From the IMG/VR virus record IMGVR_UViG_3300037510_000569, positions 62,732 through 126,731 of that record: 64,000 nucleotides of DNA; one strand, given 5' to 3'. Below the pieces are notes generated by a model. It was not told the origin of the DNA. It did not search any database and saw nothing but the letters and a program-made list of their open reading frames with translations. The position numbers and the translations under genes are program-made. Shown in pieces: positions 4,401 through 39,200 of the stretch; positions within the stretch are counted from its first letter, which is position 1; each line of letters starts with the position of its first letter. Source of the DNA: a virus (lineage: Duplodnaviria; Heunggongvirae; Uroviricota; Caudoviricetes).

Positions 4401-4402
4401 CT

Positions 4403-5944: not shown

Positions 5945-5979
5945 CTCTTTCTCCTCTCGGCCCGAGTATCTCGGGCGTT

Positions 5980-6008: not shown

Positions 6009-6238
6009 GATTCAGACCACGCAGCTACGGCTTATTTGCTTCCCTTCCTGCAGCGCTGATAGCCTTTCTCGTATGGCCCTGTCGCCGACACGAATTACCT
6101 CGAATCCCACGGCGACTACCCGAGGGCGAAAGCCCCAGGGCCAACCCCGCCAGCTTTAGCCGGGCGCTCCTGCGGCGACCCGGCATCAGCTTCCCGCTCC
6201 GGGTTGGTCACATCCGACGCAGCAGTCATAGCTGCCAC

Positions 6239-18408: not shown

Positions 18409-21400
18409 GTGCTGCGCGAACCCGTTTTCGAGCCGATCGAGCAAGCGGCTGACGAGGACGATCCCGAGGGCCTGCTTGGCACCGCGGCCGGGCGTCTCCT
18501 CGAGGGTGCCGCCCACAGCGGTGCGATGGTCGCGCTCTACCCCGACGCCGCCACGGCGGCCGAGCTTGCCATCTCTGACGGCGAGGACGCCGACGAGCTC
18601 CACCTGACCCTCGCCTTCCTGGGCGAAGCGGAGAAGCTGAACCTCACGCGGGCGCTCCAGGTCGTCGCCGAGTGGGCCGCAGCCTGCCCGCCCAGCCTCT
18701 CGGGTGAGATCAGCGGCGTCGGCCAGTTCGCCACGGGTCCGGTCACCTACCTCTCAGTCGATCTGCCGGATCTCCCGCCTCTGCGCGAGCGTCTGGTCGA
18801 TGGGTTCGATGCAGCAGGGGTGCCGCCGAAGCGCGACCACGGCTTCACGCCCCACATCACGCTCGACTACGCGCGGCGCCGGCCCAAGATGGACAGGCCG
18901 ATCCCGATCCGCTTCGACCGCGCGACCCTGGCCTGGGCCGGTTCCCAGTTCAGCTTCCCGCTCGGCGTCCGCTCGGCGGTGCCCCTGCAGGAGGCCCGGA
19001 TGCTCCTGGAGGGCAAATGGGACGCGAGCCTCCACCCGCGCTGGCCGAAAGGCACCCCGCGCGCGGGCGAGTTCATGCGCGTGGGCCAGCGCTTCATCGG
19101 CTCCGACGGCAAGGAGTGGCAGATCGCCCACATCGCCGGGGGCAAGGTGATCGCCAACCGCGCCGAGGGCAAATACGCCGAGACGGAGACGGGGGTCTTC
19201 CATCCCGAGAAGGTCAAGGGCGGCAAGTCACCCCTCGAAGGCGGCGAGGAGACCCACGTCATCGCCGATGTGAAGAAAGAGGCCGCACCGCGCAAGGTCC
19301 AGGGAGGCAAGGGCAAGGGCGCGACGGTGCCGATCGTCGATCCCTACGTGGACGGGTCAAGCCACGACGCCTCTCTGCCGGTTCCGGCTGGCTCGAAAGT
19401 CAGCGCCGAGGAGTGGAAACGCTTCGGCAAGATCGACCAGGAGCACTACGCCGAGTTGATGCAGCGCTTCGGCAAATACAGCCCTGGCAAGGCCAAGTCG
19501 ATGATCGACGAGGCCTACAAGGACTACGAGGCCGAGATTCAGGCGATCGTGAAGAACGCCTACAGCGCCCAGTACGGCTCCTCCTCGGGCTTCACGCTGA
19601 GCCTCACCGGCGTCTTCAAGGCGATCACCGGCCAAGACAAGAAGGAGCTGGCGAAGCTCGACGCCCAGCGCCAGCGCGCCCTCGAGCTTCAGGGCCGCCA
19701 CAAAGACGTGATCGCCTGGGACCTCTACAACCGCACGCGCTCCCCTGACGTGGCGGTCTTCCACAAGTCCAACGACCCGCCGAGCTACTGGCAGGAGTTC
19801 ATCCAGGGCAACCGGCCGGTGATGTCGGGGCTGTCGCAGTCGTTCAACTTCGGCGCGAACTTCGGCTTCGGCTCGAACACGCTGGCGACCCCGCTGGCGA
19901 TCCGCCACGTCCTGATGTCCTCCTACTCCGCCCAGCCGATCCCCGGTCAGACCCACTTCGCCGGCGAGCTCGAGATCAGCGTCGCCGAGCAGCTCAAGAT
20001 CGACAACCGCTCGATCACCTTTTCGCTGCACGACATCACCGCCAACCAGAAAAAGTGGCTGATGGGAGTCACCAAGGCACCCACCGGCGGGGACACCGTA
20101 GAGCGCTTCAAGGAAGCGCTGCAGTCCGGCGAGATGCTGCCGACCCCGCCCGCCCCGCCGGACATTCAGATGCAGGGGGAGGGGCAGAAGCTCTGGATCG
20201 ATCCGCCGCCGGAGGCCGCCGATTACATCGAGCGCTTCGCCGACAAACTGCCGGCGCAGCAGGGGTCTCCGCTGGACCCCGGCAAACTCGACAAGAAAGG
20301 TCCGTGGGCCTTCAAGGATGCGGGCGGCTTGCCGAAAGCGACCGTCGCCAAGGAGTCCGAATACAAGCCCGGCGACTACATGCTGGGGCTGAAGGGCACG
20401 CTCTACATCGTCGTCGAGGACCCCGGCGACCCGACCGGCTTCGGCTTGCGCTACGTCAAGATCGAGAACGGCAAGTTCAGCGGGGAGTCCTACAACTTCG
20501 AGGGCGGCGGCGGCAATCAGTACTTCAAGCTCAGCGCCCACTACGAGCTCCCCGACCCCCACAAAGAAGCGAAAGCATCCGACCTCTTCGACCCGCACGC
20601 CTGGGTCAACGGCGAGAAAGAGAAGTTCGTCGGCAAGCTGGAGCCGGGCGACAAGTTCAAGGTCAACGGCAGCCCCTACGAGGTCAAAGCCCAGCTGAGC
20701 GGCGCCCAGACCCAGATCACCGACCTCACCAGCGGCAAGGTCGGCACGATCAACACCGACTACAAGACCCATGTCCTGGTGCCGAAGGAGGGCTACGTGC
20801 CCGAGGCACCCGAAGGGGAGAAGCTGGCGCCGGCCAAAGGGATGACGCTCGCCTACGACGGCACAAAGCACGTCGTGACGACGATCCTGAAGGACGGCAC
20901 CGTCAAGGCGAAACCGACCGGCGGCGGCAAAACGGTGGCGATCGCAGCAGACGATCCTGAGCTGGACAACCTCTATGACCCAACCGCCCACAAGATCGGG
21001 GCCAAAATCAAGGCCGGCGACCTCGCCGTCGGCCAGCTCTTCCACGGCGGCCGCGGTTCCACGCAGCGCCCCTACGTCATCACGGGCGCGGAGGGCAACA
21101 AGGTCACCTGGCGATCGCTGGACACTGGCGAGGAGGGCATCTTCACCAAGGCCAAGCAGGTCCGACTGCTCGATGACGCGGAAGCGCCAGAGCCGGAGGC
21201 AGAGCAGCCGAGCGTCGAGCCGATCTCGCACGACCAACTCAAGCCGGGGGACTCAACGACGATCTCCAACTTGAAGGCGGGCGACTTCTTCTCGGTCGAT
21301 GGCGAAGTCTTTAACGTGGTCTGGGAGCCGCCGACGCTCGAGGACAACGCCGGCGTGGCCAAGGTGATGCCATCAGGCGAGATCGGCGCGGGGAGCAGCG

Positions 21401-22713
21401 AGGGCGCTTACCCGGACAAGCTCGTCACCTACACGGGCACTGCGCCGCCGCTACCCGCCACCGATATGCCCGAGGGCGGATTCCCCGACCTAGTGGCCGA
21501 GGGCGGATTTGACCCCTACAAGTCGAAGTACGGCAGCGGCGGCAAATACACCCACGACAAGCTCGGCGAAATGGTCCCCGGCACGATCTTCCGCGACAAG
21601 GGCGGCAAGCTCTGGAAGATCAAGGAGGCCGACCACGCCGTCATCGTCACCGATGGCAATGTCCTCTACACCGCCGACGCTTCGCTGCGCGGGCGGGTCG
21701 TCCAAGCGGAGTTCGTCGACACGACCGGCCCGGTCAAGGGCCCGCACGCCGATCCTCAAGAGGTCGCCGCAGCGGAGGGCTTGGCCCCGAACAGCAAGGG
21801 CCTGACGATGGCTGATCTGCCAGCCGGTGCGACCGTCTTGGTCAACGGCGAGGTCCAAGTGGTCAAGGCGCCCGCCGAGCCCGGCGACGAGGTGAGCGCG
21901 CTGGCTGCTTCCACCGAACTCGCAGACGGAGGCGAGAACCTTCTGGGTCCGGCGATCATCCCCGATCAGATCAAGCTGCCACCGAAGGTGAAATCGTTGG
22001 GAGCCCTCAAGGAAGGCGACACCTTCGCAGGCGCGGACGGTAAGCAGCACATCGTCGTAGCCAAGTCCGTCGATGGCGACGTAGTCGTTAAGACGCCAGG
22101 AGGTCAGCTGTGGAAGCTCCCGCCCTCGACCCCGCGCGACGCGGTCGACGCCGGTGTCGATGGTGGCCTCGCTGCGCCGCCGAAACCGGCACCCCCACCA
22201 GGTGATTTGAAAGTCGCCGACCTCGAGGACGGCGCGGTATTCATGGGTGCAGGGGGCGAGCTCAATACGGTCGTCGCCAAGACGGTTGACGGCGGGATCG
22301 TCGTGATGAAGGGCGACAAGCCCGGCGGCGAGATGACGACCCTCCCCGGCACCGCGGTCATCAAGGCAAGCCAAGTCGATGTGGAAGCCGAGGGCGGCGT
22401 AGCGGGTATCCCGTCCGAGGGCGAGTGGAGCGAGGCAGTGCAGCAGGCTCTCGGCGAAGCAGGGGTCACGATGGAGGAGGTCCCGGTGGCGAGTGGGATC
22501 GAGGGCTACAAGTCCAAATGGGGCTCTGGCGGCAAGTACCAGCACTACATGCTGAGCGAGCTCGAGCCCGGCGCCGTCTTCGTCGACAAGCAGGGCAACA
22601 GCTACACCGTCGTCGGCGGCGGGCCGAAGGGGTCGATCCTGGTGCTCGGCTCAGCCAGCGGCCTGCTCAGCCTCGCGCCGGCGGGCCTGCGCGCGAAACG
22701 CCTCGAAAGCTGA
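18409..22713 (+). CDS. giant 1434-aa multidomain protein: N-terminal 2H phosphoesterase (LigT/CPDase-like), putative R-S-ExE ADP-ribosyltransferase region, then many repeats of a roughly 40-aa small beta domain
   Basis: Two HxTx motifs (HLTLAF and HITLDY) about 85 aa apart; YNRTRS...SGLSQSF...AGELEIS spaced like ART R / STS / ExE; repeats of L(K/E)xGDxF..G..Y.VV...DG.V.V and GYKSK(Y/W)GSGGKY. Confidence 0.7.
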   Translation: MLREPVFEPIEQAADEDDPEGLLGTAAGRLLEGAAHSGAMVALYPDAATAAELAISDGEDADELHLTLAFLGEAEKLNLTRALQVVAEWAAACPPSLSGEISGVGQFATGPVTYLSVDLPDLPPLRERLVDGFDAAGVPPKRDHGFTPHITLDYARRRPKMDRPIPIRFDRATLAWAGSQFSFPLGVRSAVPLQEARMLLEGKWDASLHPRWPKGTPRAGEFMRVGQRFIGSDGKEWQIAHIAGGKVIANRAEGKYAETETGVFHPEKVKGGKSPLEGGEETHVIADVKKEAAPRKVQGGKGKGATVPIVDPYVDGSSHDASLPVPAGSKVSAEEWKRFGKIDQEHYAELMQRFGKYSPGKAKSMIDEAYKDYEAEIQAIVKNAYSAQYGSSSGFTLSLTGVFKAITGQDKKELAKLDAQRQRALELQGRHKDVIAWDLYNRTRSPDVAVFHKSNDPPSYWQEFIQGNRPVMSGLSQSFNFGANFGFGSNTLATPLAIRHVLMSSYSAQPIPGQTHFAGELEISVAEQLKIDNRSITFSLHDITANQKKWLMGVTKAPTGGDTVERFKEALQSGEMLPTPPAPPDIQMQGEGQKLWIDPPPEAADYIERFADKLPAQQGSPLDPGKLDKKGPWAFKDAGGLPKATVAKESEYKPGDYMLGLKGTLYIVVEDPGDPTGFGLRYVKIENGKFSGESYNFEGGGGNQYFKLSAHYELPDPHKEAKASDLFDPHAWVNGEKEKFVGKLEPGDKFKVNGSPYEVKAQLSGAQTQITDLTSGKVGTINTDYKTHVLVPKEGYVPEAPEGEKLAPAKGMTLAYDGTKHVVTTILKDGTVKAKPTGGGKTVAIAADDPELDNLYDPTAHKIGAKIKAGDLAVGQLFHGGRGSTQRPYVITGAEGNKVTWRSLDTGEEGIFTKAKQVRLLDDAEAPEPEAEQPSVEPISHDQLKPGDSTTISNLKAGDFFSVDGEVFNVVWEPPTLEDNAGVAKVMPSGEIGAGSSEGAYPDKLVTYTGTAPPLPATDMPEGGFPDLVAEGGFDPYKSKYGSGGKYTHDKLGEMVPGTIFRDKGGKLWKIKEADHAVIVTDGNVLYTADASLRGRVVQAEFVDTTGPVKGPHADPQEVAAAEGLAPNSKGLTMADLPAGATVLVNGEVQVVKAPAEPGDEVSALAASTELADGGENLLGPAIIPDQIKLPPKVKSLGALKEGDTFAGADGKQHIVVAKSVDGDVVVKTPGGQLWKLPPSTPRDAVDAGVDGGLAAPPKPAPPPGDLKVADLEDGAVFMGAGGELNTVVAKTVDGGIVVMKGDKPGGEMTTLPGTAVIKASQVDVEAEGGVAGIPSEGEWSEAVQQALGEAGVTMEEVPVASGIEGYKSKWGSGGKYQHYMLSELEPGAVFVDKQGNSYTVVGGGPKGSILVLGSASGLLSLAPAGLRAKRLES

Positions 22714-23770: not shown

Positions 23771-24372
23771 TGGGCCGCGCCAGTCGCCGCAAGCAGGAAA
23801 CTACCCGCGAGGAACGCATCGCCGGGCGCGAGACTCAAGCGACGCCGATGAGCTTCCGGGAGTTCTCGGACATCGTTCAGGAGGCCGAGCGCAACGACTA
23901 CGAAAGGCGGCGCGGGGCCGCCAACGACCCCAATCCCAAGCTGCTGCTCGAACGCGATGGGAAGCTGAAAATCATCTTCTTCGATCACGCGATGTTCAAC
24001 ACCGAGGAGGGGAAGGACGCCGCCGCCGCCGCGATTCTCGAGGCCGTAAAGAAGTCTGGGGCGCGCAAGGTCGCCTTCGCTCAGCCCGGATGGGGTCTCT
24101 TCGATCCGGAGGCGAACCAAAAAGCCATCGATGGAACCGGCCCGACCCCGATCGACCACCCAGACCGCAAGGAGATCCATGTCCTGATCGTCTTGGACGC
24201 TGAGCGTGTAGAGACCTACGTTGCGGAGGTCGAGCGCCTCGGCAAGAAGAAGCGCGGCCATCTGCGCCCCTGGAATGAGCATGTTGGCGGCGGCCCCCTG
24301 CTTGACGACATGGCCGCTGGCAACTATGTGGACAGCCGGTTCATCAACCCAGTGAAGGAGGCTTTGCGATGA
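23770..24372 (+). CDS. hypothetical protein
   Basis: 200-aa ORF with protein-like composition. Confidence 0.5.
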   Translation: MGRASRRKQETTREERIAGRETQATPMSFREFSDIVQEAERNDYERRRGAANDPNPKLLLERDGKLKIIFFDHAMFNTEEGKDAAAAAILEAVKKSGARKVAFAQPGWGLFDPEANQKAIDGTGPTPIDHPDRKEIHVLIVLDAERVETYVAEVERLGKKKRGHLRPWNEHVGGGPLLDDMAAGNYVDSRFINPVKEALR

Positions 24373-24623
24373 GAGAGACGCGCGCGCAAAAACGTATCCG
24401 CAAGGCTATGGAAGCTCGTCAGCCAGAAAAGATCACCTATGAGGAACTCGCGAACGTGGTGCAAGAAATCCGCGAACCCTGGCGGCCTCCCCCGGTAAAC
24501 TCGCCGAGGGGCTCATGTCCCCGGTCAGGAGCGACGGAGGGCCGAAGTCTGCGGGTTATCCCTTTCCTTTTACGAAAGAACTCCCGTCGGCAACAACATG
24601 CTCGCCGCTCGCTCGTGCGCTAG
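24369..24623 (+). CDS. small hypothetical protein; its 3' end is uncertain because the frame runs into the first Y-RNA-like unit
   Basis: ATGA overlap; MRETRAQKRIRKAMEARQPEKITYEELANVVQEIRE looks real, the tail is junk-like. Confidence 0.3.
   Translation: MRETRAQKRIRKAMEARQPEKITYEELANVVQEIREPWRPPPVNSPRGSCPRSGATEGRSLRVIPFLLRKNSRRQQHARRSLVR
24530..24612 (+). ncRNA. Y-RNA-like unit 1 (minimal)
   Basis: GGGCCGAAG..GGGTTATCC 5' motif and caacatgctcgcc 3' motif; no tRNA-like module. Confidence 0.5.
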
Positions 24624-24644
24624 GCTTTCTTCGCTTCAAGAGCC

Positions 24645-24780
24645 TGGTGTCGGGCCGAAGCGGATCGGTTATCAATTGGACAGAGCGCTCGCGCAAGCGA
24701 GAGGTTGCGGGTTCGATCCCCGCCTTCCACCGCTCCAACGGTGGATGTAGCTACACCGACTGCACCCCACGCTCGGCACC
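24645..24780 (+). ncRNA. Y-RNA-like unit 2 with tRNA-like T-arm module
   Basis: GGGCCGAAGcggatcGGTTATC ... gcgggttcgatccccgc ... gcaccCCACGCTCGGC. Confidence 0.55.
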
Positions 24781-24794
24781 TTCGCTAGACTCGG

Positions 24795-24933
24795 CTCCGC
24801 CGGGCCGAAGTGAATCGGTTATCTCATGCCAAGAGAGAGGTCGCGGGTTCGAGTCCCGCTCCGGGCCGCAAGGACCGGGTAGCTCAGCTGGTAGAGCGCT
24901 AAAACTCCGATTTGCACCCCATGCTCGGCGCTT
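24795..24933 (+). ncRNA. Y-RNA-like unit 3 with T-arm-like and D-arm-like elements
   Basis: GGGCCGAAGugaaucGGUUAUCUC (near-identical to the human Y RNA GGUCCGAAG..GUUAUCUC stem, from memory) ... cgcgggttcgagtcccgc ... gggtagctcagctggtagagcgc ... caccCCATGCTCGGC. Confidence 0.6.
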
Positions 24934-24947
24934 CTCGCTAGACTGGC

Positions 24948-25056
24948 CCCGCCAGGCCGAAGCGATCGTCGGTTATCACTGGTTCGATTCCTGTCAGCCC
25001 GCACTTGGGCTGTGCTCATGGGAGCTTCCCGACTCGCACCCCACGCTTGGCGACTT
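24948..25056 (+). ncRNA. Y-RNA-like unit 4
   Basis: AGGCCGAAGcgatcgtcGGTTATC ... ggttcgattcc ... gcaccCCACGCTTGGC. Confidence 0.5.
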
Positions 25057-25074
25057 CCACGCGCTAGACTCGCT

Positions 25075-25222
25075 TCCGCCGGGCCGAAGCAGGTTGGTTA
25101 TCGGCTCATAACCGGGTGGCCGCGGGTTCGAGTCCCGTCGCACCTCCGCCTTCGGGCCACGGGTGCGTAGCTCAGTTGGTAGAGCACCTAAACGCCAATC
25201 GGCAATCCCACGCTCGGCACTT
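25075..25222 (+). ncRNA. Y-RNA-like unit 5 with T-arm-like and D-arm-like elements
   Basis: GGGCCGAAGcaggttGGTTATC ... cgcgggttcgagtcccg ... gtgcgtagctcagttggtagagcac ... caatcCCACGCTCGGC. Confidence 0.55.
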
Positions 25223-25259
25223 CCTCGACGCGACACCGGACCCTTTGCTAGTGTCGCGC

Positions 25260-25330
25260 GTGGGCGGGCCGAAGCCCTTCGGTTATCTCTTACGGAAAAG
25301 ACCCGATCGGCAACCCCACGCTCGCTCGTC
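25260..25330 (+). ncRNA. Y-RNA-like unit 6 (minimal)
   Basis: GGGCCGAAGcccttcGGTTATCTC ... caaccCCACGCTCGCT; ends about 30 nt before the Ro60 start. Confidence 0.5.
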
Positions 25331-25360
25331 TCTTGTACTCCACTGACCGGGAGGACCCCA

Positions 25361-26974
25361 ATGGGCCAGTATCTGCGCCAGCACTCCACGCGCTCCACGC
25401 CGCAGTCCGAGCCGATGAGCTCAGACCAGCGCCAGAACCCGGCCGGCGGCTTCGCTTGGCCGGTCGATGACTGGACGCGCGCGCGTCGCTTCCTGATCCT
25501 CGGTGCCGAGGGTGGCACCTACTACGTCGGTCAGCGCGAGCTCGTGAAGGACAACGCTGCGGCGCTTGAGCGCTGCCTCGCCGAGGACCCGATGCGCACG
25601 ATCGAGATGATCTGCGACATCAGCGACGGCGGTCTGGCGAAGTCCAACGACCCGGCGCTGTTCGCGCTGGCGATGGCGGTTGGCTCAAACGACCTGGAGA
25701 CGCGCCGCGAGGCTTGGCGTCGTCTGCCCCAGGTCGCCCGCATCGGCACGCACCTCTTCCACTTCGTTGCCTACATGCAGCAGTTCCGCGGCTGGGGGCC
25801 GCTGGCTCGCCGCGGCGTCAGCGCTTGGTACGAGGGCAAGGAAGCCGACAAGCTCGCCTACCAGCTCGTCAAGTACCGCCAGCGCGACGGTTGGAGCCAC
25901 CGCGACGTTCTGCGCCGCGCGCACCCCAAGGCACCGAGCGAACTGCACAAGGCGCTCTACGACTTCGCCTGCGGCCGGGAGTTCGGCGGCGGCGTGATCG
26001 AGGGCGAGGGAGGCGAGCGAGCTCTCAACATGATCGAGGGCTACCTGGCGGCGCAGAAGGCCGCAAGCCCGGCCGAGTCGGCGCGGCTGATCGGCGAGCA
26101 CGACCTGCCGCGCGAGGCGGTCAAGACCGACCACCTGACCTCGCCCGAGGTCTGGGAGGCGCTCCTGCGCAACATGCCGATCACGGCGATGATCCGCAAC
26201 CTCGCCAACCTGACTCGCGTGGGGATCATCAAGCCGATGAGCGACGGCGAGAAGCTCGTGGCAGAGCGTCTCGGCGACGAGGAGCGCCTGCGCAAGGGCC
26301 GTGTACATCCGATCGCGGTTCTCTCGGCGCTGACGATCTATGAGCGCGGCCATAGCGCCCTCGGTCGGGGCGAGGACTGGACGCCGTCGCAGAAGGTTGT
26401 TGACGCTCTCGATGCCGCCTTCTATACGGCCTTCGGGTCGGTGGAGCCCGCGAACAAGCGCACGCTGATCGCCGTCGATGTCTCCGGCTCGATGGGCTGG
26501 GGTGACATCGCTGGCGTTCCGGGGCTGACGCCGCGAGTCGGCGCCGCTGCGATGTCTCTGGTGACGGCGTCGACGGAGCCCGATCACGCGATCACCGCCT
26601 TCTCGCACACGATGGTCCCGGTCTCGGTCTCGCCGCGTCAGCGGATGGACGATGTGCTCCGCACCTTCGATGCTCTGCCGATGGGCGGCACCGACTGCGC
26701 GCTGCCGATGATCTACGCGGAAGAAATGGACCTCGAGATCGACACCTTCATCGCCTACACCGACAGCGAAACGTGGGCTGGGGAAGTCCACCCGGCTCAG
26801 GCCCTGCGCACCTACCGCGAGAAGACTGGCATCAACGCCCGCCTGATCGTCGTCGGCATGGTGTCGAGCGAGTTTTCGATCGCCGACCCCAACGACGGGG
26901 GGATGCTCGATGTCGTCGGCTTCGACAGCGCCGCGCCGGCGACGATGAGCGCCTTCTCCCGCGGCGAGGTCTAG
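25361..26974 (+). CDS. rsr: Ro60 (Rsr) orthologue: TROVE domain plus vWA domain with MIDAS motif
   Basis: RFLILGAEGGTYY, DGWSHRDVLRRAH, MPITAMIRNLANLT, RVHPIAVLSALTIYERGHS, LIAVDVSGSM (DxSxS), PMGGTDCALPMIYA, GMLDVVGFD; start set to the ATG with RBS gggagga because the upstream ORF extension overlaps the Y-RNA array. Confidence 0.85.
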   Translation: MGQYLRQHSTRSTPQSEPMSSDQRQNPAGGFAWPVDDWTRARRFLILGAEGGTYYVGQRELVKDNAAALERCLAEDPMRTIEMICDISDGGLAKSNDPALFALAMAVGSNDLETRREAWRRLPQVARIGTHLFHFVAYMQQFRGWGPLARRGVSAWYEGKEADKLAYQLVKYRQRDGWSHRDVLRRAHPKAPSELHKALYDFACGREFGGGVIEGEGGERALNMIEGYLAAQKAASPAESARLIGEHDLPREAVKTDHLTSPEVWEALLRNMPITAMIRNLANLTRVGIIKPMSDGEKLVAERLGDEERLRKGRVHPIAVLSALTIYERGHSALGRGEDWTPSQKVVDALDAAFYTAFGSVEPANKRTLIAVDVSGSMGWGDIAGVPGLTPRVGAAAMSLVTASTEPDHAITAFSHTMVPVSVSPRQRMDDVLRTFDALPMGGTDCALPMIYAEEMDLEIDTFIAYTDSETWAGEVHPAQALRTYREKTGINARLIVVGMVSSEFSIADPNDGGMLDVVGFDSAAPATMSAFSRGEV

Positions 26975-28205: not shown

Positions 28206-28498
28206 CGGTGATGATCGGACTCCCGACGCCTGCGGCCCAGATTCGGGAGGAGCTCGCTCGATTGCGGCGCAAGGGCCTGAGTTTCGAGATCGCCTGGCGG
28301 CGAGCACTTGAGCGCGTGAAGTGGCCCGAAGAGAAAGGGCCGCGCGACGAATGGAAGGCGATCCTCGCCGACGGCAGGCCGATGTGGGAGGACGCCTACC
28401 TCCGCAACGGCAACAAGCCGAAGGGCATGGAGGCGATCACCGGCTTCTTCCTCTCAGACGCCTCGGGCGAGCGCCAACCGCTCGAGGTCCTCGCCTAG
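28202..28498 (+). CDS. hypothetical protein
   Basis: ATGA overlap; 98 aa. Confidence 0.45.
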   Translation: MTVMIGLPTPAAQIREELARLRRKGLSFEIAWRRALERVKWPEEKGPRDEWKAILADGRPMWEDAYLRNGNKPKGMEAITGFFLSDASGERQPLEVLA

Positions 28499-29673
28499 CG
28501 CTTCACCCGCCGGAACCAGAAGGGCAGCAGGTACCCGATGCCGGTCGCGCAGGCGATGTAGAAGCCGGAGAAGAACACGCTGTGATCTGAGACGCTCATG
28601 GCGAAGTTCCACACGTAGCTGACGAAGAAGAGCAGGCAGAAGAACAGCATCACCGCGGAGACCGCCCTGTCGTACTTCAGGATGAAGCGGTCACTGCGGT
28701 CGAGCTTGATGTAGACCACAGCAGGGTGTTTCTTCGAGTGTCCGGGAGGGCAGACCTCGCCGACGTACATCACCATTCCCTCGCGCTCCTCCGGCGTCTT
28801 GTCGCCAGAGAGGACCTCGATCTCGTAGTTGCCGCGGGCGCGCGGCCTGCCATTGATACGAATGAGACCGCCTTCGCTCAGCGTCATCGGCGGCGCCCAG
28901 AAGATGTCGTTGGGGGTGGTGTCGAGCTCTGGCCGCATCTCCTCAGGAACGACATCGCCGTCTGTCTGGGACTCAACCCACGCGCGCATTGCTTTGGGCT
29001 TCGGCTCGATCACCTCGACTCCGTAGCGCCCGACCGCGCGTTTGAGCGCCGCCGCCAGGTCGTAGCTCGCCCCCTTCTCCTCGATCATCGCTTGCACCGG
29101 GGTACAGAGTGCGACGATTTCGGCGTACTCGGCTCGGATGCCCGCGTGGTGGACCTCCATGTCACCCCAGGCTCGGACGATGCCCGCGACCGGGATTGCT
29201 TCGCTCTTGCCGAAGCGGACCAGCTCGACATCACGCGGGTCGTGGTAGGCGTAGAGGCCGCAGCCGCAGTTGGCGAGGGGAGCGCGGTGCCCGTCGGCGA
29301 AGTCGGCCACGCAGACAGCGACATTGCGACCAGCCTCCCAAGTGGTGTTCCCCTGTCCCTGCGAGGTCAGGTATCCAGCTGCGTCAAGTTGCCAAGCGCG
29401 GAAACCGTAAACCGCCCCGACGAGATCCGGCGGAACCTCCGGCCGCGCCGGCGGCTCGAACTTCAGAGAGGCCGCTTCCCACTCTTCGATCGAAGTCTGC
29501 TCCCAATTGGTGCGCAAGTCGGTGACGCTGAGGACCAGCGTTTCGCCCATCCCACCAACCCGAGCAGGCAAGGTCTGTACGACCACGACCCCAGGAGCGA
29601 CAGGGACATGCTGAATTACGCGGACGAGCTTTAGCGGGTCCGCTGCGTTGCGCCAGTAGGTGCTCTCCAGCAC
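28495..29673 (-). CDS. paralog-family protein (FRAW..C..CGCGLYA..GIRAEYA domain) with C-terminal TM segments
   Basis: Minus-strand ORF with GTG start; third copy of the domain seen at 11598 and 14063; hydrophobic C-terminus LFFCLLFFVSYVW and FYIACATGIGYLLPFWF. Confidence 0.55.
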   Translation of the reverse strand: MLESTYWRNAADPLKLVRVIQHVPVAPGVVVVQTLPARVGGMGETLVLSVTDLRTNWEQTSIEEWEAASLKFEPPARPEVPPDLVGAVYGFRAWQLDAAGYLTSQGQGNTTWEAGRNVAVCVADFADGHRAPLANCGCGLYAYHDPRDVELVRFGKSEAIPVAGIVRAWGDMEVHHAGIRAEYAEIVALCTPVQAMIEEKGASYDLAAALKRAVGRYGVEVIEPKPKAMRAWVESQTDGDVVPEEMRPELDTTPNDIFWAPPMTLSEGGLIRINGRPRARGNYEIEVLSGDKTPEEREGMVMYVGEVCPPGHSKKHPAVVYIKLDRSDRFILKYDRAVSAVMLFFCLLFFVSYVWNFAMSVSDHSVFFSGFYIACATGIGYLLPFWFRRVKR

Positions 29674-29926: not shown

Positions 29927-30739
29927 GTGGCAGACCCGTTTCGCGTCTATGGCCCCGAGGAGTGCGGCCAGGACGGCTATCCCTTCATCTGGCATCGCAA
30001 CGACGGCTCGCTCGACGCTCTGATCGCAGAGCTAGAAATCGCTGAGACCTCTGGCGTCAAGCACATCGTCCGCGCCCAGGCTGCGCACCGCTGTCTGCGC
30101 TGCAACCACCCCTTCGTGGTCGGGGAGTCGGGAGTGATGGAGGGTCCTCAGGCCGAAGCTAAGTCCTGGGCGGCCGAGATGGGCGTCGATGTCGAGGTCC
30201 TCGATGAGGTCTTCGCCGACATCGGCGTGCCCGGCCTGACGCGCGAGCAGGAGATGAAAGCCCTTGAGCGCGCGCGGCGGATCAACTGGTCACGCTGCGA
30301 CAAGCTCTGTACCCACGGTGGCCCGATCCGGGCGGCGTGGGAGAACAAGGAGACCGGCGAGACCGAAAAAGGCGATACCTGGTCGCCGACCAGCGTCGCC
30401 ACCGCCGGCGAGCTTCATCAGGAGTGGCTCGGCAAGGGCAGGATCGAAGCCGCCTGGCGCATCCTCACCGTCCACCACCTCGACGAGGTGAAGGCGAACC
30501 TGCGCTGGTGGAACCTAGTCGCGCTCTGCCAGCGCTGCCACCTCCTGATCCAGCGCAAGGTGACGATGGACCACCCCTGGCCATGGGAGCACTCGGACTG
30601 GTTCCGACCCTACGCTGCGGCTTGGTACGCGCTGAAGTATCGCGGCGAAGAGCTGAACCGGCTCGAAACGCTCGGCCGCCTTGAGGAGCTGCTGGCGCTC
30701 GGCCAGCGCGAAGAGTCCGTAGAGAGGATGCCGCTTTGA
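29927..30739 (+). CDS. HNH endonuclease with an N-terminal CxxC domain
   Basis: GTG after ccaaggag; HHLDEVKANLRWWNLVALCQRCHLL HNH core; HRCLRCNH. Confidence 0.65.
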   Translation: MADPFRVYGPEECGQDGYPFIWHRNDGSLDALIAELEIAETSGVKHIVRAQAAHRCLRCNHPFVVGESGVMEGPQAEAKSWAAEMGVDVEVLDEVFADIGVPGLTREQEMKALERARRINWSRCDKLCTHGGPIRAAWENKETGETEKGDTWSPTSVATAGELHQEWLGKGRIEAAWRILTVHHLDEVKANLRWWNLVALCQRCHLLIQRKVTMDHPWPWEHSDWFRPYAAAWYALKYRGEELNRLETLGRLEELLALGQREESVERMPL

Positions 30740-31530
30740 GCGTCCCCAGCGCCCTGCTCGACGAGCACCCGCCGATGGCGGAGTGGAGCATCCTGCTCGC
30801 CTACCGCGGCTCGATCGCGCACGGCATGTACGAGCCCAACGACATGCCGACCTCGACCGACGACAAAGACCTGATCGGAGTCTGCGTGCCGCCGCTCGAC
30901 CACTACGTCGGCTTCCGCGAGTTCGGCAACCAGCGCACCTACGAGGTGATGAGCGACCCCTGGGACATCGTGGTCTACGAGGCGACCAAGGCGATCAAGA
31001 TGCTAGCCGACGGCAACCCCAATGTCCTCAGCTTTCTCTGGCTGCCCGAGGACCTTTACCTCTCCGTCTCGTCGGCGGGGCGGCGCTTGATCGACTCCCG
31101 CGACATCTTCGCCGCTCGCTCGACCTACTTCCGCTTCATTGGCTACGCGCGCGAGCAGATGCGCAAGATGGAGAGCGGCGCCTACCTCGGCTACATGGGC
31201 GAGAAGCGCAAGCGCTTGGTGGAGGCTTTTGGCTACGACACCAAGAACGCCTCGCACCTGATCCGCATCCTGCGCATGGGGATTGAGTTCCTCGACGACG
31301 GAACGATGCGAGTTCAACGCCAGGACGCCGCCGAACTGATGGCGATCAAGCATGGCGGCTGGCCGCTGGAGAAGGTGAAGGCGGAGGCTGAGCGTCTCTT
31401 CGAGCTGGCCGCAGAGTCCCATGTGCGATCGCCTCTTCCCGACGAGCCAGATCGCGCTCGCGTCAATTCCCTGGCGGTCCAAGTCGTCCTCGAGGCGCTG
31501 ACCGAACGGGCCGAGCTCCCCAAGACCTGA
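30736..31530 (+). CDS. predicted nucleotidyltransferase (Pol-beta-like GS...DxD fold, pfam10127-like)
   Basis: LAYRGSIAHGMYEPNDMPTSTDDKDL; TTGA overlap start, or an alternative ATG at 30775. Confidence 0.5.
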   Translation: MSVPSALLDEHPPMAEWSILLAYRGSIAHGMYEPNDMPTSTDDKDLIGVCVPPLDHYVGFREFGNQRTYEVMSDPWDIVVYEATKAIKMLADGNPNVLSFLWLPEDLYLSVSSAGRRLIDSRDIFAARSTYFRFIGYAREQMRKMESGAYLGYMGEKRKRLVEAFGYDTKNASHLIRILRMGIEFLDDGTMRVQRQDAAELMAIKHGGWPLEKVKAEAERLFELAAESHVRSPLPDEPDRARVNSLAVQVVLEALTERAELPKT

Positions 31531-31571: not shown

Positions 31572-32612
31572 ATGAGCAACGAAACGAGTTTCCCGATCGG
31601 GTGGCTTATCGCGGTCGTGGTGGCTTTCCTTTTCGTCATCGTGGCGATCGGTAGCTGTTCCTCGCTGAACCGGACCGGCCCGACCGAGGTCGCGCTGATC
31701 CGCAACGGCGGCCCCTTCGACAACAAAAGCATCCGGGAGGTCCGACCGCCGAGCCAGGGCTACAAGGTCAGCGGGCTTGCCTCTGAAGTGCGCAAGTACA
31801 TCGCCGGAAACGAGCAGCGCTACTACAAGGTCTCGAGTGACCCAAGCCTGGGTAGCGAAAGCGGCTCTGACTTCATCAAAGTCCCTACCAAGGACGGCGT
31901 GAACGTCGAGGTCGACGCCCAGATCAGCTTCCGCACGAACTTCACCAACGAAGGCGGAGAACTGACGCCCTGCGACTGCCCCAACGAAAAAGGCGATCAG
32001 GAATACGAGTGGTTGCTGGAAAAGTTCGACACCAACTACGGCAACCGCAACTACCGCGCCAAGGACGGAGACCAGTTGAAGGTCTGGGAAGGCAACGATG
32101 GATGGAACGCCTTCCTCGACAGCATCTTCCGGCCGGTCGTGGAGAACGCCTTCCGCGAGCAGGTCGGCTCGGTCAACTGCGCCGACCTGGTGAGCAGTTG
32201 CGCGCTCGTCCAGTCCTCCAGCCAGGACCAGTCCGTCGCCTTCACCGGAGCTGACAACCGCAAAAACTTCGAGCGGATTCAGAACTCGGTGCAGGCTCAG
32301 ATCGACGAAGGCGTCGAAAGCGCCCTCGGCACCGAATACCTGACCGGCTTCAAAGTCCAGCTGACGAAGGTCTCGCTGCCACAGAAGGTCCAGGACGCGA
32401 TCGACGACGCTCAGGCCAGCTTCGCCAAGATCGCTGAGGCACGAGCAGGCAAGATCCAGGCCGACTACCAGGCAGAAGCCAACGAACGGCTCGCCGCCGC
32501 CTACCGCGGCAACCCGATCCTCGGCTACATCAAAGCGATCGAATCCCTCAAGGACTCGACCGCGACGATCATCGTCGGCGAACCGGGCACCGGGCTCAAC
32601 ATCGGACGCTGA
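31572..32612 (+). CDS. SPFH / band-7 (stomatin-prohibitin-HflK/C-like) membrane protein
   Basis: N-terminal TM WLIAVVVAFLFVIVAIG, SPFH-like core, C-terminal Ala/Glu coiled coil; GC somewhat lower than neighbouring genes. Confidence 0.65.
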   Translation: MSNETSFPIGWLIAVVVAFLFVIVAIGSCSSLNRTGPTEVALIRNGGPFDNKSIREVRPPSQGYKVSGLASEVRKYIAGNEQRYYKVSSDPSLGSESGSDFIKVPTKDGVNVEVDAQISFRTNFTNEGGELTPCDCPNEKGDQEYEWLLEKFDTNYGNRNYRAKDGDQLKVWEGNDGWNAFLDSIFRPVVENAFREQVGSVNCADLVSSCALVQSSSQDQSVAFTGADNRKNFERIQNSVQAQIDEGVESALGTEYLTGFKVQLTKVSLPQKVQDAIDDAQASFAKIAEARAGKIQADYQAEANERLAAAYRGNPILGYIKAIESLKDSTATIIVGEPGTGLNIGR

Positions 32613-33685: not shown

Positions 33686-34099
33686 TTAGGCAGAGCGCTT
33701 TAGCTCGCGCAGGCGGGCTGTCGCCTGCTCTCGGTAGGCAAGCTCGGAATCCGTGAGCTTACGACCACCAGAGCCATAAGTGAGGATCAGGTCTGCCAGA
33801 ACTCCAGCCTCCGCCTTCTTAACGACCAGATAGGGCTGTATCGCGTCAAGTACCTCACGAACACCCTTAGCCCCCTGCACTGACCAAGCGTAAACAGGAC
33901 GGTGCTCGCCCTTGCCTTTGCAGCGCTGGTAGACAGACCCGCCGAATATGCCTTGAAGCTTCTTCAGTGCAGCGAGGTTCGTATTGCCGACCGTGATTCG
34001 TGGCATATGCCGCTGGCGAGAAGCCAGATTCCGATGAACATCGAGACATCCCTCACCGTCGATGAAGCCAGCGGCCCATGCGCGGTCAGTCTCTCGCAT
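33686..34099 (-). CDS. LAGLIDADG homing endonuclease (single-motif type)
   Basis: AWAAGFIDGEGC motif; ATG at 34099 chosen, or alternatively TTG at 34162; sits between the divergent ku and ligase genes. Confidence 0.65.
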   Translation of the reverse strand: MRETDRAWAAGFIDGEGCLDVHRNLASRQRHMPRITVGNTNLAALKKLQGIFGGSVYQRCKGKGEHRPVYAWSVQGAKGVREVLDAIQPYLVVKKAEAGVLADLILTYGSGGRKLTDSELAYREQATARLRELKRSA

Positions 34100-34137
34100 G
34101 GTCAGGCAGCCTACTGGCTGCGATCCAGCCAAATAAG

Positions 34138-34167
34138 TGCTAACTTTCTTGGCACCGACCAAGGGGA
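34138..34167 (+). promoter_or_regulatory. full start-associated motif copy before the ligase gene
   Basis: gctaactttcttggcaccgaccaagggga, 4 nt before the ATG. Confidence 0.55.
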
Positions 34168-34171
34168 AGCA

Positions 34172-35095
34172 ATGAGCAAGACCGTAGCAATTCCTGCCGC
34201 ACCGACTTCACCGATTGATCTCGTCCAGAAGGCTGAGACCAAACAAGGAATGAACCCAGAGCAGTTAGGCGACCACTGGACGATGGAGCCCAAGTGGGAC
34301 GGCTGGCGCTTGCTCGCCCATGTGACTGAGACCGGCGTGCATCTCTACACGCCCACCGGCAACGTCCAGGACGGGAAGCTCCTGGAGATAGAGGCCGAGC
34401 TTTCCCGGCTCCCGGCTGGAACCTGGATCGACGGCGAGGCGGTCGCCCTGATGCTCGACGGCGACATGGTGGTCCATGAATGGAACGCGGTCCAGAAATG
34501 CCTCGGTTGCTCTGACCTCACCAAGGCTCGCGCCCGTTCTGGCCCGATCACTTTCGTCGCCTTCGACCTGATCTCCCACGCAGACATCGACGCGCGCTCA
34601 CTGCCCTTCGTCAAGCGGCGGGACCTGCTGGAGCGCGTCTTGGACCAGCACTCCTGGGAGCGGGTGATCCTGACCCCTCAGGTCGCGCCGACCGACGAGC
34701 ACCTCGCCTCCTTCATCGCCCAGGGCTTCGAGGGCGGCGTTGCGAAGTCCTTGACCGCCCCCTACGCGAGCGGCCAGCGGGGACAGGGGCAGATCAAGTT
34801 CAAGCCTCAGGCGACTGACGACTTCGTCGTGATGGGCTTCAAAGAGGGTGAGAACGGCTTCACTGGGTTGATCGGCGCGATCGTCTTTGGCGCCTACGAG
34901 AACGGGGAGCTTGTCGAACGCGGCCGGTGCTCAGGGATGGATATGGCAACGCGCGTGCGGATTTCCAAGGACCGTGACAGCTACCTCGGCAATGTGCTGG
35001 AGGTCGCCCACATGGGTTTCATCGGGGCTGGCTACCGCCACCCACAATTCAAGCGTTGGCGCCCAGACAAAGCGCCAGCGGAATGTGTCGTCTAG
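34172..35095 (+). CDS. ATP-dependent DNA ligase (LigD ligase-domain type)
   Basis: Motif I EPKWDGWR (KxDGxR), DGEAV (III), FVAFDL, EGGVAK (IV), QIKFK (V); 307 aa. Confidence 0.8.
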   Translation: MSKTVAIPAAPTSPIDLVQKAETKQGMNPEQLGDHWTMEPKWDGWRLLAHVTETGVHLYTPTGNVQDGKLLEIEAELSRLPAGTWIDGEAVALMLDGDMVVHEWNAVQKCLGCSDLTKARARSGPITFVAFDLISHADIDARSLPFVKRRDLLERVLDQHSWERVILTPQVAPTDEHLASFIAQGFEGGVAKSLTAPYASGQRGQGQIKFKPQATDDFVVMGFKEGENGFTGLIGAIVFGAYENGELVERGRCSGMDMATRVRISKDRDSYLGNVLEVAHMGFIGAGYRHPQFKRWRPDKAPAECVV

Positions 35096-36234: not shown

Positions 36235-39200
36235 ATGGCCGCCTCGCCAACGAATCGCACGCTGCAGGAGGTCAGCTCGTCGGTCTACCCCAAGCTCGAG
36301 CGCAAACCGGGGAAGCAGAACTGGGTTGACTACGCCGGCGGTCTGCCGTCCTACATCGAACGGATCGCCAAACACCTCCACTACGAGAAGGGCAAAGACA
36401 TCTCGACGGCGATCGCGATCGCCGTCAACACGGTCAAGAAGTGGGCGACGGGAGTCAACCACAACGGCTCGAAACTGAAGCCGGACACCGTTGCCAAGGC
36501 GCAGGCCGCCGTGGCGGAGTGGGAGGCGAAGAAGGCCAAGGCGAAAGGCAAGAGCCTGGCCGAGGCCGCTTACAACGAAGCGCCAGGCGGGATCGAGATG
36601 AGCGCGGAGGACCGCGCCTCGGTCGTTGGCACCTTCTCCCACCGCCTGACGCTCCTGGAGGGCTTCGCGCTGAACCTCAAGGGCGCCTCGACCAAAGGGA
36701 AGAGTGCGGCGCTCGACAATGCGATCGCTCTGCTGGAGGGCCGCGAGGTCAAGCTGGCGATCGGCGGCGGCAACGCCGACTCGCGCGCTCTCGCTCGCGC
36801 TCAGTCAGCGCTCGGCAAGGAGGCCGCGGAACTGCGCTCGGTGCTCGAGGCCTTCGAAGGTCCTCAGGTCAGAGCCGCTCGCCGCGATGTCAAGCAGCAG
36901 GCGAAAGGCCGAAACGGTCAGGCGGTCTTCGACGAATCCAAACACCCTCGCGCCGGGAAGGGCCAGCCGACCGGCGGGCAGTTCATCCGCAAGGGCGCCA
37001 CCGGCAGCGAGGTCAAGGGCATCCAGCGCGCGCTCGGGATCAAAGCCGACGGGAAGTTCGGCAACAAAACCAAGTCGCGCGTCGAAGAGTTCCAGCGCAA
37101 CCACGGCCTGACGGTCGACGGCGTCGTCGGCGCTCAGACCGCTGGCGCTCTCCACGGAACCGAAGCGGTGCCAGGCCCGCTCCTCTCCCACCACCGAGGG
37201 CGTCTGCGCAAGATCAGTCAGAAAGTCGAGAAGCAGTACTCGAAGGCATCGTTGGCGGCGGCCGACGCCAAGGAAAAACGCGAAAACAAGGCGCGCAAAG
37301 CCCGCAAAGAAGCTAGAAAAGAAGCAGAATCTAAGGCGAAATCTTCGTCTTCTTCGTCGTCCTCCTCCTCAGCCACGGGTACGGACAGTGGTGTCGGCTC
37401 GACGCTCGGCCCGGACTCAAGCCTGCCCGAGAAAGTCGTGCAGCTGATCCAGCGCAAACTCGGCATCGACACCAGCGGCTCCTACGACGAAGCGACCGAG
37501 AAGGCGATCCGCAAGTTCCAGCGCGACCACGGCCTGCTCGTCGACGGCATCGTCGGCACCCAGACCCTCGCCGCGCTGCGTGGCGATGAATCCCCGCCGG
37601 AGCCGGGTGCCTTCAGTGAGTCCGACTGGAGTTGGCTGACCCAGCACCAGGCCGGCGGCCAGCGCGAAAGGCGGCATGAGCGTCAGAAGGAGCATCGCCA
37701 GGAGCGTCGCCAGCGCCAGGAAGAAAAGCAGGAAGAACGCGAACTGCGGGTCGAAGAGGCGATGGTCAAGGACGACTTCGTGCGGCGCTACGGCGCCGGG
37801 ATGACTGGTGCGCCCGACGAGGCGACCGGCCACCTTCAGCGCCGCCTCACCGAGCTTGGCTACGAGCCGGGTGCTGACGACGGCCGCTACGGAGAGAAGA
37901 CCAAAGGCGCGGTCTCGAAGTTCCAGGGCGACCACGGCCTCAAAGAGGACGGCGAGGTCGGTCACGACACGAAGCTCGCGTTGCGCGGCACCGACCCCGA
38001 GGAGGTCGCCCGTCGGCGCACCAGCGAGGAGTCGGAGACCTCGGAGGAGAAGTCCGACGAGAAAAATGCTCAGAAACCTGTTCAGAAAAGTGACCAGGAA
38101 CCTGCTGAGGGCGAGCAGGAGGAGAAGGAGCCCAGCGAACGCCACAGCCTCGCCGGCGCAGTCCTCACCAAGGGCGCGGGCGTTGATGCCGAGGACGCCG
38201 ATCCTTCGGTCGAACAGATGCAGAGCATCATCGGCACCGAGGTCGATGGGCGCTTCGGCCCCGAGACCGAGAAGAAGCTGAAGTCGGTTCAGCGCCGCTA
38301 CGGGCTGAAGGCCGACGGCGTCGTAGGGCCCAAGACCGGCCGCCTGCTCGACCGCATGGCCTCCAAGCACAAGCCCGACCCGAAGAAGATGAAGGAGGCT
38401 GCTCTCGATGCCGCGATCCTCGATCGCATGGAGGCCGCCGTCGCGGGCGACAACACCGCCTTCATCAGAGCACGCGCTCGAGAGGAGCACGCGCGCCAGA
38501 ACCTCGCCGAGGCTTCCCTGCGCGGCATCGGCGGCGATCTCGTCCGCAGCTTCTACCGCCTCGACGACGGCACCTTTGCGCCGAAAGGGATGGGCCGCAT
38601 CCTCAAGCCGGGTGAGGAGATCAAGCTCCCCCACCGGAACGGCGAGGGCTCAGTCCGCGCTCGGATCGAACCGGGCGGCAACAAAGGCCGCGGCATCGCC
38701 AGGATTCTCGACGGCCCCGACGAGGGCCAGCTGGCGGCCGTGCGGACCGCTGCGCCAGCGGGGACCAGCCCACGCGGCTTCCCGCGGCCGCTCTCGAGGA
38801 AGCCCGCGCCACTGCCGCCAGGTGACCCCAGCAGCGGGGCCAAAGTGCAAGAGGTCAAATCGCAGAACTACCGCGACGCGATCAACCACCACATCACCAA
38901 GGGCGAGGACCACGCCGTTCAGGACCACCTGGACGACATGGAGAGCGATCACCAGTGGTCCGAACGTCAGGGCTACGGCAAGGCGATCGCCAACTACGAC
39001 GCGGCCAAGTCCGCAGGCGAGCACTTCCTGACCCACGGCGAGCCCCCTCAGCGGGAGTTGACCGGAACCGACGAGATCGCACGCGCGATGCGCGGCGGCG
39101 GGGAGACGATCACCACTCCAGCCGGGACTTTCAAGATCAGCGAGGACGAGGGGGGCTGGTATGCGCTCGACACCAGTGATCCAGAATCCGAGCACCTGGT

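Follow-up and report, generated by a model that had tools for sequence, protein, structure and literature searches.

A gene for Ro60, a ring-shaped protein of RNA quality control, and, directly upstream of it, a tandem array of six genes for Y-like RNAs were found in a 64,000-nucleotide stretch of tailed-phage DNA (IMG/VR record IMGVR_UViG_3300037510_000569, positions 62,732 to 126,731; hereafter the window, whose own numbering is used throughout). The 830 nucleotides (nt) 5' of Ro60 hold six same-strand units, 34 to 826 nt upstream of the gene and thus inside the 4 kb on the same strand within which YrlA RNAs are expected. All six share a base-paired platform with a motif that marks bacterial Y RNAs. 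The identity of these parts is established from their sequences, and homology and genomic context suggest what the parts may bind and do. We consider it likely that the phage makes a Ro60 ring together with six small RNAs as its dedicated partners, an adaptor set in an RNA-repair neighborhood. The features, numbered W1 to W6 in the direction of Ro60, are as follows.

24535-24607, + strand: W1, minimal Y-like RNA with both stems, a CGAA loop, UUAUC, and a pyrimidine-rich apical hairpin; its stem can be extended to 24531-24612
24648-24778, + strand: W2, Y-like RNA that has a V hairpin, a T arm (GCGGGUUCGAUCCCCGC), an acceptor-like stem of 6 bp, and just a remnant of a D arm (GUAGCUAC)
24798-24930, + strand: W3, YrlA-type RNA with a complete circularly permuted tRNA-like domain of V hairpin, T arm, loop-closed acceptor-like stem, and D arm
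24950-25052, + strand: W4, Y-like RNA with a reduced module of a weak T arm with a conserved UUCGAUU loop, a 6-bp stem-loop, and a short D-like hairpin
25077-25219, + strand: W5, YrlA-type RNA whose permuted tRNA-like domain is complete, with an acceptor-like stem of 7 bp (CGCACCU / GGGUGCG)
25262-25327, + strand: W6, minimal Y-like RNA that ends 33 nt ahead of the Ro60 start codon
25361-26974, + strand: Ro60 (Rsr) orthologue of 537 amino acids with a TROVE/HEAT-repeat ring region and a Ro60-type vWA domain with a complete MIDAS (metal-ion-dependent adhesion site)

Sequence homology places the assignment of the open reading frame (ORF) at 25361-26974 to Ro60/Rsr beyond reasonable doubt. A Pfam search returned vWA_Ro60 (PF25045, E-value 3.4e-63, residues 367-532) and TROVE (PF05731, 7.2e-43, in two stretches), and PHROG 850, annotated as RNA-binding protein, matched at 3e-81. 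The structure of Deinococcus radiodurans Rsr (2NVO) matched residues 5-537 at 3e-138, and two other solved Ro60 structures matched over the full length (1YVP, 5.7e-120; 9NEN, 4.5e-119). A preliminary description of this DNA, made from the letters alone, had called the protein a TROVE plus vWA orthologue of Ro60, and the domain searches bear this out. The MIDAS residues D373, S375, S377, T444, and D445 (DxSxS, T, D) are invariant in an alignment of the window protein with its 14 closest relatives (alignment A1), as is the KYRQR.GWSHRD block. A Shine-Dalgarno sequence, GGAGG, lies at 25350-25354, 7 nt ahead of the ATG. An identical Ro60 protein is on record from a JGI metagenome. Deposited actinophage Ro60s are 36-48% identical to the window protein, and the nearest bacterial ones, at 50-57%, are scattered among Solirubrobacterales, Gaiellaceae, Chloroflexota, Armatimonadota, and myxobacteria.

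The six units are equally distinct from their surroundings. The pattern GCCGAAG-N6-8-GGTTATC occurs six times in the 64-kb window when both strands are read, every time on the + strand between 24541 and 25287, and is expected 0.00 times by chance (100 shuffles). The units add up to 649 nt and so occupy about 82% of 24535-25327. CM R1, a covariance model of the stem that they share, scored 33.0 bits for W1, 42.8 for W2, 42.2 for W3, 39.5 for W4, and 36.9 for W6, and at most 13.4 bits in the rest of the 64 kb; W5 was found by a descriptor scan but missed by CM R1 at default filters. With filters off the model gave much lower, fragmentary scores, which were not used.

In minimum-free-energy (MFE) or centroid folds all six units show a common frame. 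The two ends of the unit form a lower stem of 8 bp, typically GCCGGGC / GCUCGGC with a conserved G-U pair, followed by an asymmetric internal loop with CGAA on its 5' side and 7-8 A/C-rich nt on its 3' side. An upper stem of 8-9 bp, often with a small bulge, leads to UUAUC and then to the variable module. The pairing of the 5' and 3' ends around a bulge, which had been proposed from the letters, is therefore present as a terminal-stem architecture throughout the array. The motifs themselves proved less uniform than first described. The 5' motif is found in every unit, as GGGCCGAAG in five and as AGGCCGAAG in W4, where the spacer is N8; the 3' motif varies and takes the form CA(C/U)GCU(C/U)G after the A/C-rich stretch of 7-8 nt. 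GCCGAAG is present in six of six units and corresponds to GNCGAAN0-1G, the motif close to YrlA's 5' end. At the level of sequence, then, the platform includes GNCGAAG, the hallmark of the end by which bacterial Y RNAs bind Ro60.

Above this platform the units differ, and they fall into minimal hairpins (W1, W6), complete permuted tRNA-like RNAs (W3, W5), and reduced tRNA-like RNAs (W2, W4). W1 and W6 fit the hairpin type of bacterial Y RNA (YrlB/Yrn2), a class for which there is no curated model, in having the Ro60 motif, a small pyrimidine-rich loop, and no full tRNA-like module. Their apical regions are CCCUUUCCUUUUAC and CUCUUACGG. The MFE and centroid folds of W1 agree, and the hairpin fold of W6 is supported; W6 may also be part of the leader of the Ro60 mRNA. 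W3 and W5 possess everything that defines the tRNA-like domain of YrlA, namely a T arm, a loop-closed acceptor-like stem, and a D arm, with T before D. The Rfam YrlA model (RF02553) aligned with W5 over its full length at 40.8 bits (E 2e-7 in a 1-kb search), an alignment that puts the model's Ro60-binding end on GGUUGG, away from GCCGAAG, and with W3 at 36.9 bits (E 3e-6, 1-kb search). On relatives the model gave 39-52 bits.

To ARAGORN, W3 and W5 are tRNA-like only when their topology is changed. It called none of 16 unpermuted units a tRNA. Circularly permuted, W3, W5, and the three units that correspond to them on two related contigs (L006 and L008, described below) were called as tRNAs, with the Y platform treated as an intron. 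The tRNA-like domains of W2 and W4 are incomplete; their permuted forms were not called, and the T arm of W4 has a U-U mismatch. The claim that four units carry tRNA-like modules therefore stands for two complete modules, the other two being reduced. In the same way the T-arm and D-arm strings ascribed to units 2 to 5 are exact in W3 and W5 and absent as such from W2 and W4. No canonical tRNA was found by ARAGORN in 24500-25350, where the Rfam tRNA model, whose gathering score is 29, gave only partial matches (18.3 and 14.8 bits).

Three related contigs, one of which shares further genes with the window, permitted evaluation of how the array has been conserved.

L006: Ro60 81% identical; six units, the first truncated at the edge of the contig; a metagenomic contig of 2.4 kb and the closest relative found
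L007: Ro60 74% identical; three units; the contig begins at the first unit
L008: Ro60 64% identical; three units; syntenic with the window

L008 shares with the window the giant 2H-phosphoesterase protein upstream and the Band_7 protein downstream. Near-identity DNA searches of deposited phages found nothing useful, so no cultured close relative is available, and a single-protein scan of IMG/VR with Ro60 gave two distant loci only.

When the window is compared with L006, W3, W4, and W6 are clearly orthologous (79-83% identity), and W1, W2, and W5 plausibly so. W3 corresponds to L006 329-456 (83%) and L008 3763-3890 (79%). W4 corresponds to L006 202-305 (79%), and both its acceptor-like stem and its D-like hairpin show compensatory changes between the two. 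The counterparts of W6, L006 649-715 (79%) and L007 246-312 (82%), lie at an equal distance from the start codon; the linker between W6 and Ro60, the start codon, and GGAGG are likewise kept in both contigs. W1 has counterparts at L006 1-59 and L007 2-62. Those of W2, at L006 85-186 and L007 89-188, keep nothing past the T arm and so lack both acceptor-like stem and D arm. In L006 the units of the W3 and W4 types have exchanged places relative to the window. Judged by this orthology, the six-unit set is an old differentiated gene family rather than a recent amplification.

The stems also covary. In an alignment restricted to the arms (A2; 17 units, from four phage contigs related to one another), pairing was present in 96.3% of stem cells, a fraction inflated by the fact that the 3' arms were located partly through their complementarity, and 9 of 16 pairs changed on both sides. 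None of 500 shuffles reached the observed values, and sliding the partners cut pairing to 35-48%. A run of MAFFT and RNAalifold that was independent of A2, on six whole tRNA-like units (W3, W5, and one unit of Gordonia phage Forza included), recovered the helices of the lower and upper stems, the V hairpin, the T and D arms, and the acceptor-like stem; compensatory changes occur in 15 of the 36 pairs. The chance expectation for the motif and the covariation of the stems both bear out the description of six Y-RNA-like units in one orientation directly upstream of Ro60.

To place the number six, units were counted with a descriptor (the 5' motif plus pairing of both stems) in 289 loci in all.

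Window plus 88 Ro60 loci of deposited phages, close relatives, and metagenomes (89 sources): 115 units on the Ro60 strand, 7 on the other
Bacterial genome loci (80): 170 units on the Ro60 strand, 14 on the other; mode 2-3, with about six at two Armatimonadota loci
IMG/VR stretches with the exact 14-base motif (120, among the matches listed): rarely above four units; 59 of the 120 are without a structurally validated unit, and the set served as a rough check only

Among the 89 sources, 29 had no unit, 28 had one, 17 had two, 10 had three, and 3 had four, with five at one locus (the truncated L006) and six at one (the window). Six in tandem were found only in the window and in L006 among the 289 loci. 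The array had been described as unusual, and in this sense it is, but the difference is one of degree. Arrays of three to five units are frequent, the metagenomic loci L020 and L023 each have five tandem units within large tRNA arrays, and the two Armatimonadota loci, both chromosomal, have about six. By inspection, the cultured and deposited phage Forza (L001, MK814760) has seven units in two clusters (2569-2938 and 5392-6030). Three of these lie upstream of Ro60 and four downstream, each of the latter directly after a tRNA or transfer-messenger RNA (tmRNA) gene, and one downstream unit scored 52 bits with Rfam YrlA. The remaining deposited phages examined have one to three units each. The tandem six is thus the largest tandem array seen, yet it is the end of a continuous distribution.

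None of the deposited phage records examined, Forza included, annotates Y-like RNAs, and the survey shows that these RNAs are systematically absent from phage and bacterial annotations. An annotated tRNA-Gln of Forza (locus 5540-5607) overlaps one of its units and has no support from the Rfam tRNA model at E<=1. In Rhodococcus phage Trina (L093), the annotation has a 209-nt 'tRNA-OTHER' pseudogene (2143-2351) a short way upstream of the Ro-like gene, in the place where one would look for a Y-like RNA; the descriptor found no unit in this locus. Many Ro60 genes also occur within large tRNA arrays, with about 10-20 tRNA matches in the 3-kb flanks and Y-like units interleaved, on contigs of bacterial metagenome-assembled genomes (L097, L098, L099, L102, L103, L105, L106, L112, and L114) and in the metagenomic L020 and L023. 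No paper in the literature library searched links 'tRNA array' with Ro60 or TROVE. At several loci the Rfam tRNA model gave full-length matches of 110-130 nt (L107 2154-2277 and 1652-1771; L104 2607-2737; L113 2253-2361 and 2495-2614; L100 2437-2558; L095 904-1024). By eye, those of L107 are tRNAs of normal topology whose anticodon arm is replaced by a Ro60-type Y platform with a short closing loop (GCCGGAG..GGTTACC). Such chimeras are a circular permutation of the YrlA topology in the window.

Most units of the window are preceded by a box resembling a bacterial -10 element.

24621-24626, + strand: TAGGCT, 21 nt ahead of the W2 stem and outside the usual 5-7 nt
24786-24791, + strand: TAGACT, 6 nt ahead of the W3 stem
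24939-24944, + strand: TAGACT, 5 nt ahead of the W4 stem
25065-25070, + strand: TAGACT, 6 nt ahead of the W5 stem
25249-25254, + strand: TAGTGT, 7 nt ahead of the W6 stem

Across four contigs, a TANNNT box, mostly (c)gcTAGACT, ends 5-7 nt before the lower stem in 11 of 16 units. TANNNT begins at 0.14% of window positions, which gives a nominal P of about 6e-21, a value that overstates independence because the units share descent. The spacing would put +1 at the first base of the stem. The tails that follow the stems are U- or pyrimidine-rich, most clearly in L006. We therefore regard most units as candidate separate transcription units whose transcripts would start about 7 nt past the box and end at the terminal stem and its pyrimidine-rich tail. 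Because W6 ends 33 nt from the ATG and the linker is conserved, Ro60 is probably translated from read-through transcripts, most plausibly those of the last unit.

In the mechanism that we favor, Ro60 would bind the platform on its outer surface and stabilize the RNA, as can be proposed from the complexes of Xenopus laevis Ro60 with Y RNA and of D. radiodurans Rsr with Yrn1. The variable modules would then be adaptors that couple one Ro60 ring to different partners. Candidate partners are an exoribonuclease such as the host PNPase and tRNA-handling enzymes. Complexes of Ro60, Y RNA, and PNPase have precedent in Deinococcus, in Salmonella, and in Thermus phage phiLo. Through them the phage might govern how structured RNAs (tRNA, rRNA) are degraded, repaired, or checked for quality during infection. 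A role in RNA surveillance or decay, the direction suggested in the preliminary description, would also suit the neighborhood, which includes at least 15 tRNA genes, a 2H phosphoesterase, and an RlaP nucleotidyltransferase.

Several results weigh against this interpretation of the locus. Folding energies compared with those of shuffled GC-rich sequence gave z values of -0.46 to -1.37, which are not significant; because thermodynamic stability does not separate the units from shuffles, the case for them is built on covariation and conservation, and the paired fraction in A2 is, as noted, inflated. None of the curated Rfam models reached its threshold in the window. The YrlA matches, 15.8 bits for W4 and the higher values given above for W5 and W3, fall short of the gathering score of 69, the nematode RNA model RF01656 gave 26.3 bits on W1 against a gathering score of 38, and the Y_RNA model RF00019 gave zero matches at E<=10 in the window region. 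The covariance-model comparison that had been proposed for the region thus yielded subthreshold support from YrlA and none from Y_RNA. The survey likewise shows that current Rfam models miss such Y-like RNAs at threshold. W1 lies inside the 3' part of a candidate ORF of 84 codons (24369-24623, + strand), which overlaps the preceding gene at ATGA, runs through W1, and stops at the TAG of TAGGCT; this ORF has no Pfam or PHROG match and no counterpart in the syntenic L008. A simple consensus scan found zero full sigma-70 promoters and zero canonical terminators. The only ligase nearby (33902-35095) was dropped as a candidate RNA ligase; it matches a PHROG of ATP-dependent DNA ligase. Finally, the tail sheath of the phage is only about 24% identical to that of any deposited phage, which makes it very distant from phages available for comparison.

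The result of the consensus scan also bears on how the RNAs might be produced. It is possible, although we think it doubtful, that the units form one long leader or precursor co-transcribed with Ro60, from which host RNases (RNase P, RNase E, and 3' exonucleases) would cut out the Y RNAs, with TANNNT serving as a processing or spacing signal. The lack of terminator-like and full promoter-like sites in the scan would be expected in that case, and the 33 nt after W6 leave no room for a promoter of Ro60's own. Mycobacterium smegmatis offers a precedent, in that YrlA and YrlB upstream of rsr are processed from one precursor (PMC4201824), and the position of the four downstream Forza units directly after tRNA or tmRNA genes suggests release by tRNA-processing enzymes. 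However, the fixed distance between TANNNT and the stem in 11 of 16 units is what would be expected of a -10 box with +1 at the stem, and the U- or pyrimidine-rich tails past the stems, clearest in L006, also argue for separate transcripts. A precursor would alter only the biogenesis of the RNAs, not their identity or role. It is less likely that the units act mainly in cis, as sites in the leader of the Ro60 mRNA at which Ro60 would bind and so regulate its own translation or mRNA stability, with stable RNAs acting in trans as a by-product. In the window and in L006, L007, and L008 alike, 33-35 nt do separate the last minimal unit from the Ro60 start codon, with the Shine-Dalgarno sequence in the conserved linker. 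Yet six different, separately conserved units, some with tRNA-like domains, far exceed the needs of autoregulation, and elsewhere units sit downstream of Ro60 or amid tRNA genes. Moreover, Y RNAs accumulate as stable ribonucleoprotein particles in the species studied to date (PMC4201824).

The tRNA likeness of the array raises two further explanations. The tRNA-like units might be decoys that sponge host tRNA-recognizing enzymes or tRNA-targeting defense nucleases, largely independently of Ro60, which would only protect them. W3, W5, and their three counterparts are complete tRNA mimics except for the anticodon arm, and they belong to a phage that is rich in tRNAs and carries RNA-repair-type enzymes. 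However, what the Ro60 platform replaces is precisely the stem-loop of the anticodon, at which anticodon nucleases usually act; nothing in the two minimal units is tRNA-like; and the tight linkage of units and Ro60 over hundreds of loci argues for joint function; we give this explanation little credence, about as little as a role in cis. That the array is functionless debris of a decayed tRNA cluster or of repeats is disfavored and has next to no probability. The T-arm and D-arm strings, the weak partial matches to the Rfam tRNA model, and the many real tRNA genes of the phage are what would suggest it. But the T arm precedes the D arm in these units, the stems covary, the minimal units have no tRNA parts at all, and the six unit types persist in a relative with a Ro60 that has diverged by 19%.

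A phage Ro60 with dedicated Y-like RNAs thus remains the preferred interpretation, and systems of this kind have been described before. YrlA has been found near Ro60 in 254 bacteria and 22 phages, and each species studied has two or more Y RNAs, one tRNA-like and one hairpin (PMC4201824, Chen et al. 2014). Phage Ro60 with Y-like RNAs has been in the literature since 2014, and the window locus is an unusually rich real case of it. As in the YrlA/YrlB-Rsr systems (PMC4201824; RF02553), the RNAs adjoin Ro60 on the same strand with GNCGAAN0-1G near the 5' end, and besides at least one RNA whose T arm, acceptor-like stem, and D arm follow each other in permuted order there are hairpin-type RNAs that lack the full module. 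The 7-bp acceptor-like stem of W5 resembles that of M. smegmatis YrlA, which RNase P cleaves. The window differs in having six RNAs rather than the usual one to three, in adding UUAUC after the upper stem, in scoring below the Rfam gathering score, and in having a -10-like box for most units where M. smegmatis has a single precursor. Furthermore, the Ro60-binding helix can be recognized by both of its strands in the window, whereas for the RNAs of Salmonella and M. smegmatis the 5' strand alone is described as recognizable (PMC4201824).

The closest experimental precedent is in Thermus phage phiLo, whose Ro60 binds two upstream Yrl RNAs and assembles with the host PNPase (PMC12135203). phiLo resembles the window in having a phage-encoded Ro60 with CGAA-motif Y-like RNAs directly upstream. 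It differs in having two RNAs, for which no tRNA-like domains are described, and in being an unrelated phage of an unrelated host. Actinophage loci annotated as 'Ro-like RNA binding protein' (mycobacteriophages of cluster C such as Rizal and ET08, and Myrna; Gordonia phages Forza and Cashline; Streptomyces phages) share upstream units of the GCCGAAG..GGTTAY type and tRNA-rich genomes with the window. They differ in having one to three upstream units, and the four downstream units of Forza are without a TANNNT box.

The likeness to the vertebrate Y RNA stem noted in the preliminary description holds up in comparison with metazoan Y RNAs and nematode stem-bulge RNAs (sbRNAs). Shared features are the platform with 5' G(G/U)CCG(A/G)AG, the upper stem, (G)GUUAUC, and 3' CA(A/C)C..UG.(C/U)CG. 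RF01656, which models nematode sbRNAs, a family homologous to Y RNAs, aligns with W1 and the other minimal units over their whole length. It reaches 35-37 bits at phage-like loci (37.0 at L008 3680-3746, with L023 3253-3341 and L020 3936-4026), and it exceeds its gathering score at bacterial Ro60 loci (44.9 at L114 2798-2867; 42.8 and 40.7 at L107 2405-2474 and 1570-1641). In these alignments both strands follow the nematode consensus nearly base for base. The UUAUC motif is known to be conserved in sbRNAs and in vertebrate Y RNAs, and a published review holds that the Y RNAs of bacteria lack homology to the vertebrate clades (PMC4726728). No paper in the literature library searched ties UUAUC to bacterial Y RNAs. 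Because both platform strands and UUAUC are shared closely enough for the sbRNA model to pass its threshold on bacterial copies, we tentatively suggest that the minimal units (W1, W6, and their counterparts) could be true homologues, rather than analogues, of metazoan Y and stem-bulge RNAs. Set against this are the scores of the window units below the gathering score, the absence of a match to RF00019, and the absence of an RNA polymerase III context. If the suggestion were correct, Ro60 and its RNA would have moved as a two-part unit between bacteria, phages, and animals, phages with Ro60 and a diversified RNA set would be plausible vehicles, and the six RNAs would be a differentiated adaptor set, not redundant copies.

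Ro60-Y RNA particles are understood in few organisms, and this locus bears on the role of the variable part of the Y RNA. That one phage has six distinct Y RNAs beside a single Ro60 gene and that the same types are kept in a diverged relative suggests that they are not redundant. The locus offers minimal, partial, and complete mimics of tRNA side by side on one platform, a small natural panel suited to adaptor tests that could show which host enzymes a phage redirects.

The phage is an uncultivated myovirus with sheath, tape-measure, and head genes. ARAGORN located 15 tRNA genes upstream of the locus in the window. It also called an 89-nt tRNA-Ala(ggc) at 28417-28505 (- strand), which the Rfam tRNA model did not report at its gathering score and which is probably a false call. 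The RNA-repair setting is indicated by two genes in particular. The 1,434-amino-acid protein encoded at 18409-22713 (+ strand) has an N-terminal 2H phosphoesterase/LigT-like domain (PF13563, 3.4e-12) followed by sequence that is unassigned, and 3.8 kb downstream of Ro60, at 30736-31530 (+ strand), lies a Pol-beta nucleotidyltransferase of the RlaP family (PF10127, 1.4e-19), a family linked to RNA repair beside RNA ligases. Comparative genomics has placed phage TROVE proteins among RNA-repair functions or in an RNA-repair platform (PMC7824862).

Other observations concern nearby genes. The homologue of the 1,434-amino-acid protein in the syntenic L008 has 1,622 amino acids and also a precomputed Pfam match to 'Tad3'. 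A Band_7/SPFH protein is encoded near Ro60 in the window (31572-32612, + strand), in L008 (8497-9558), and in Trina (4142-4996), where the two genes are directly adjacent. Just upstream of the head and tail genes of the window, a protein of 1,468 amino acids (36235-40641, + strand) has four repeated stretches that match endolysin-annotated families.

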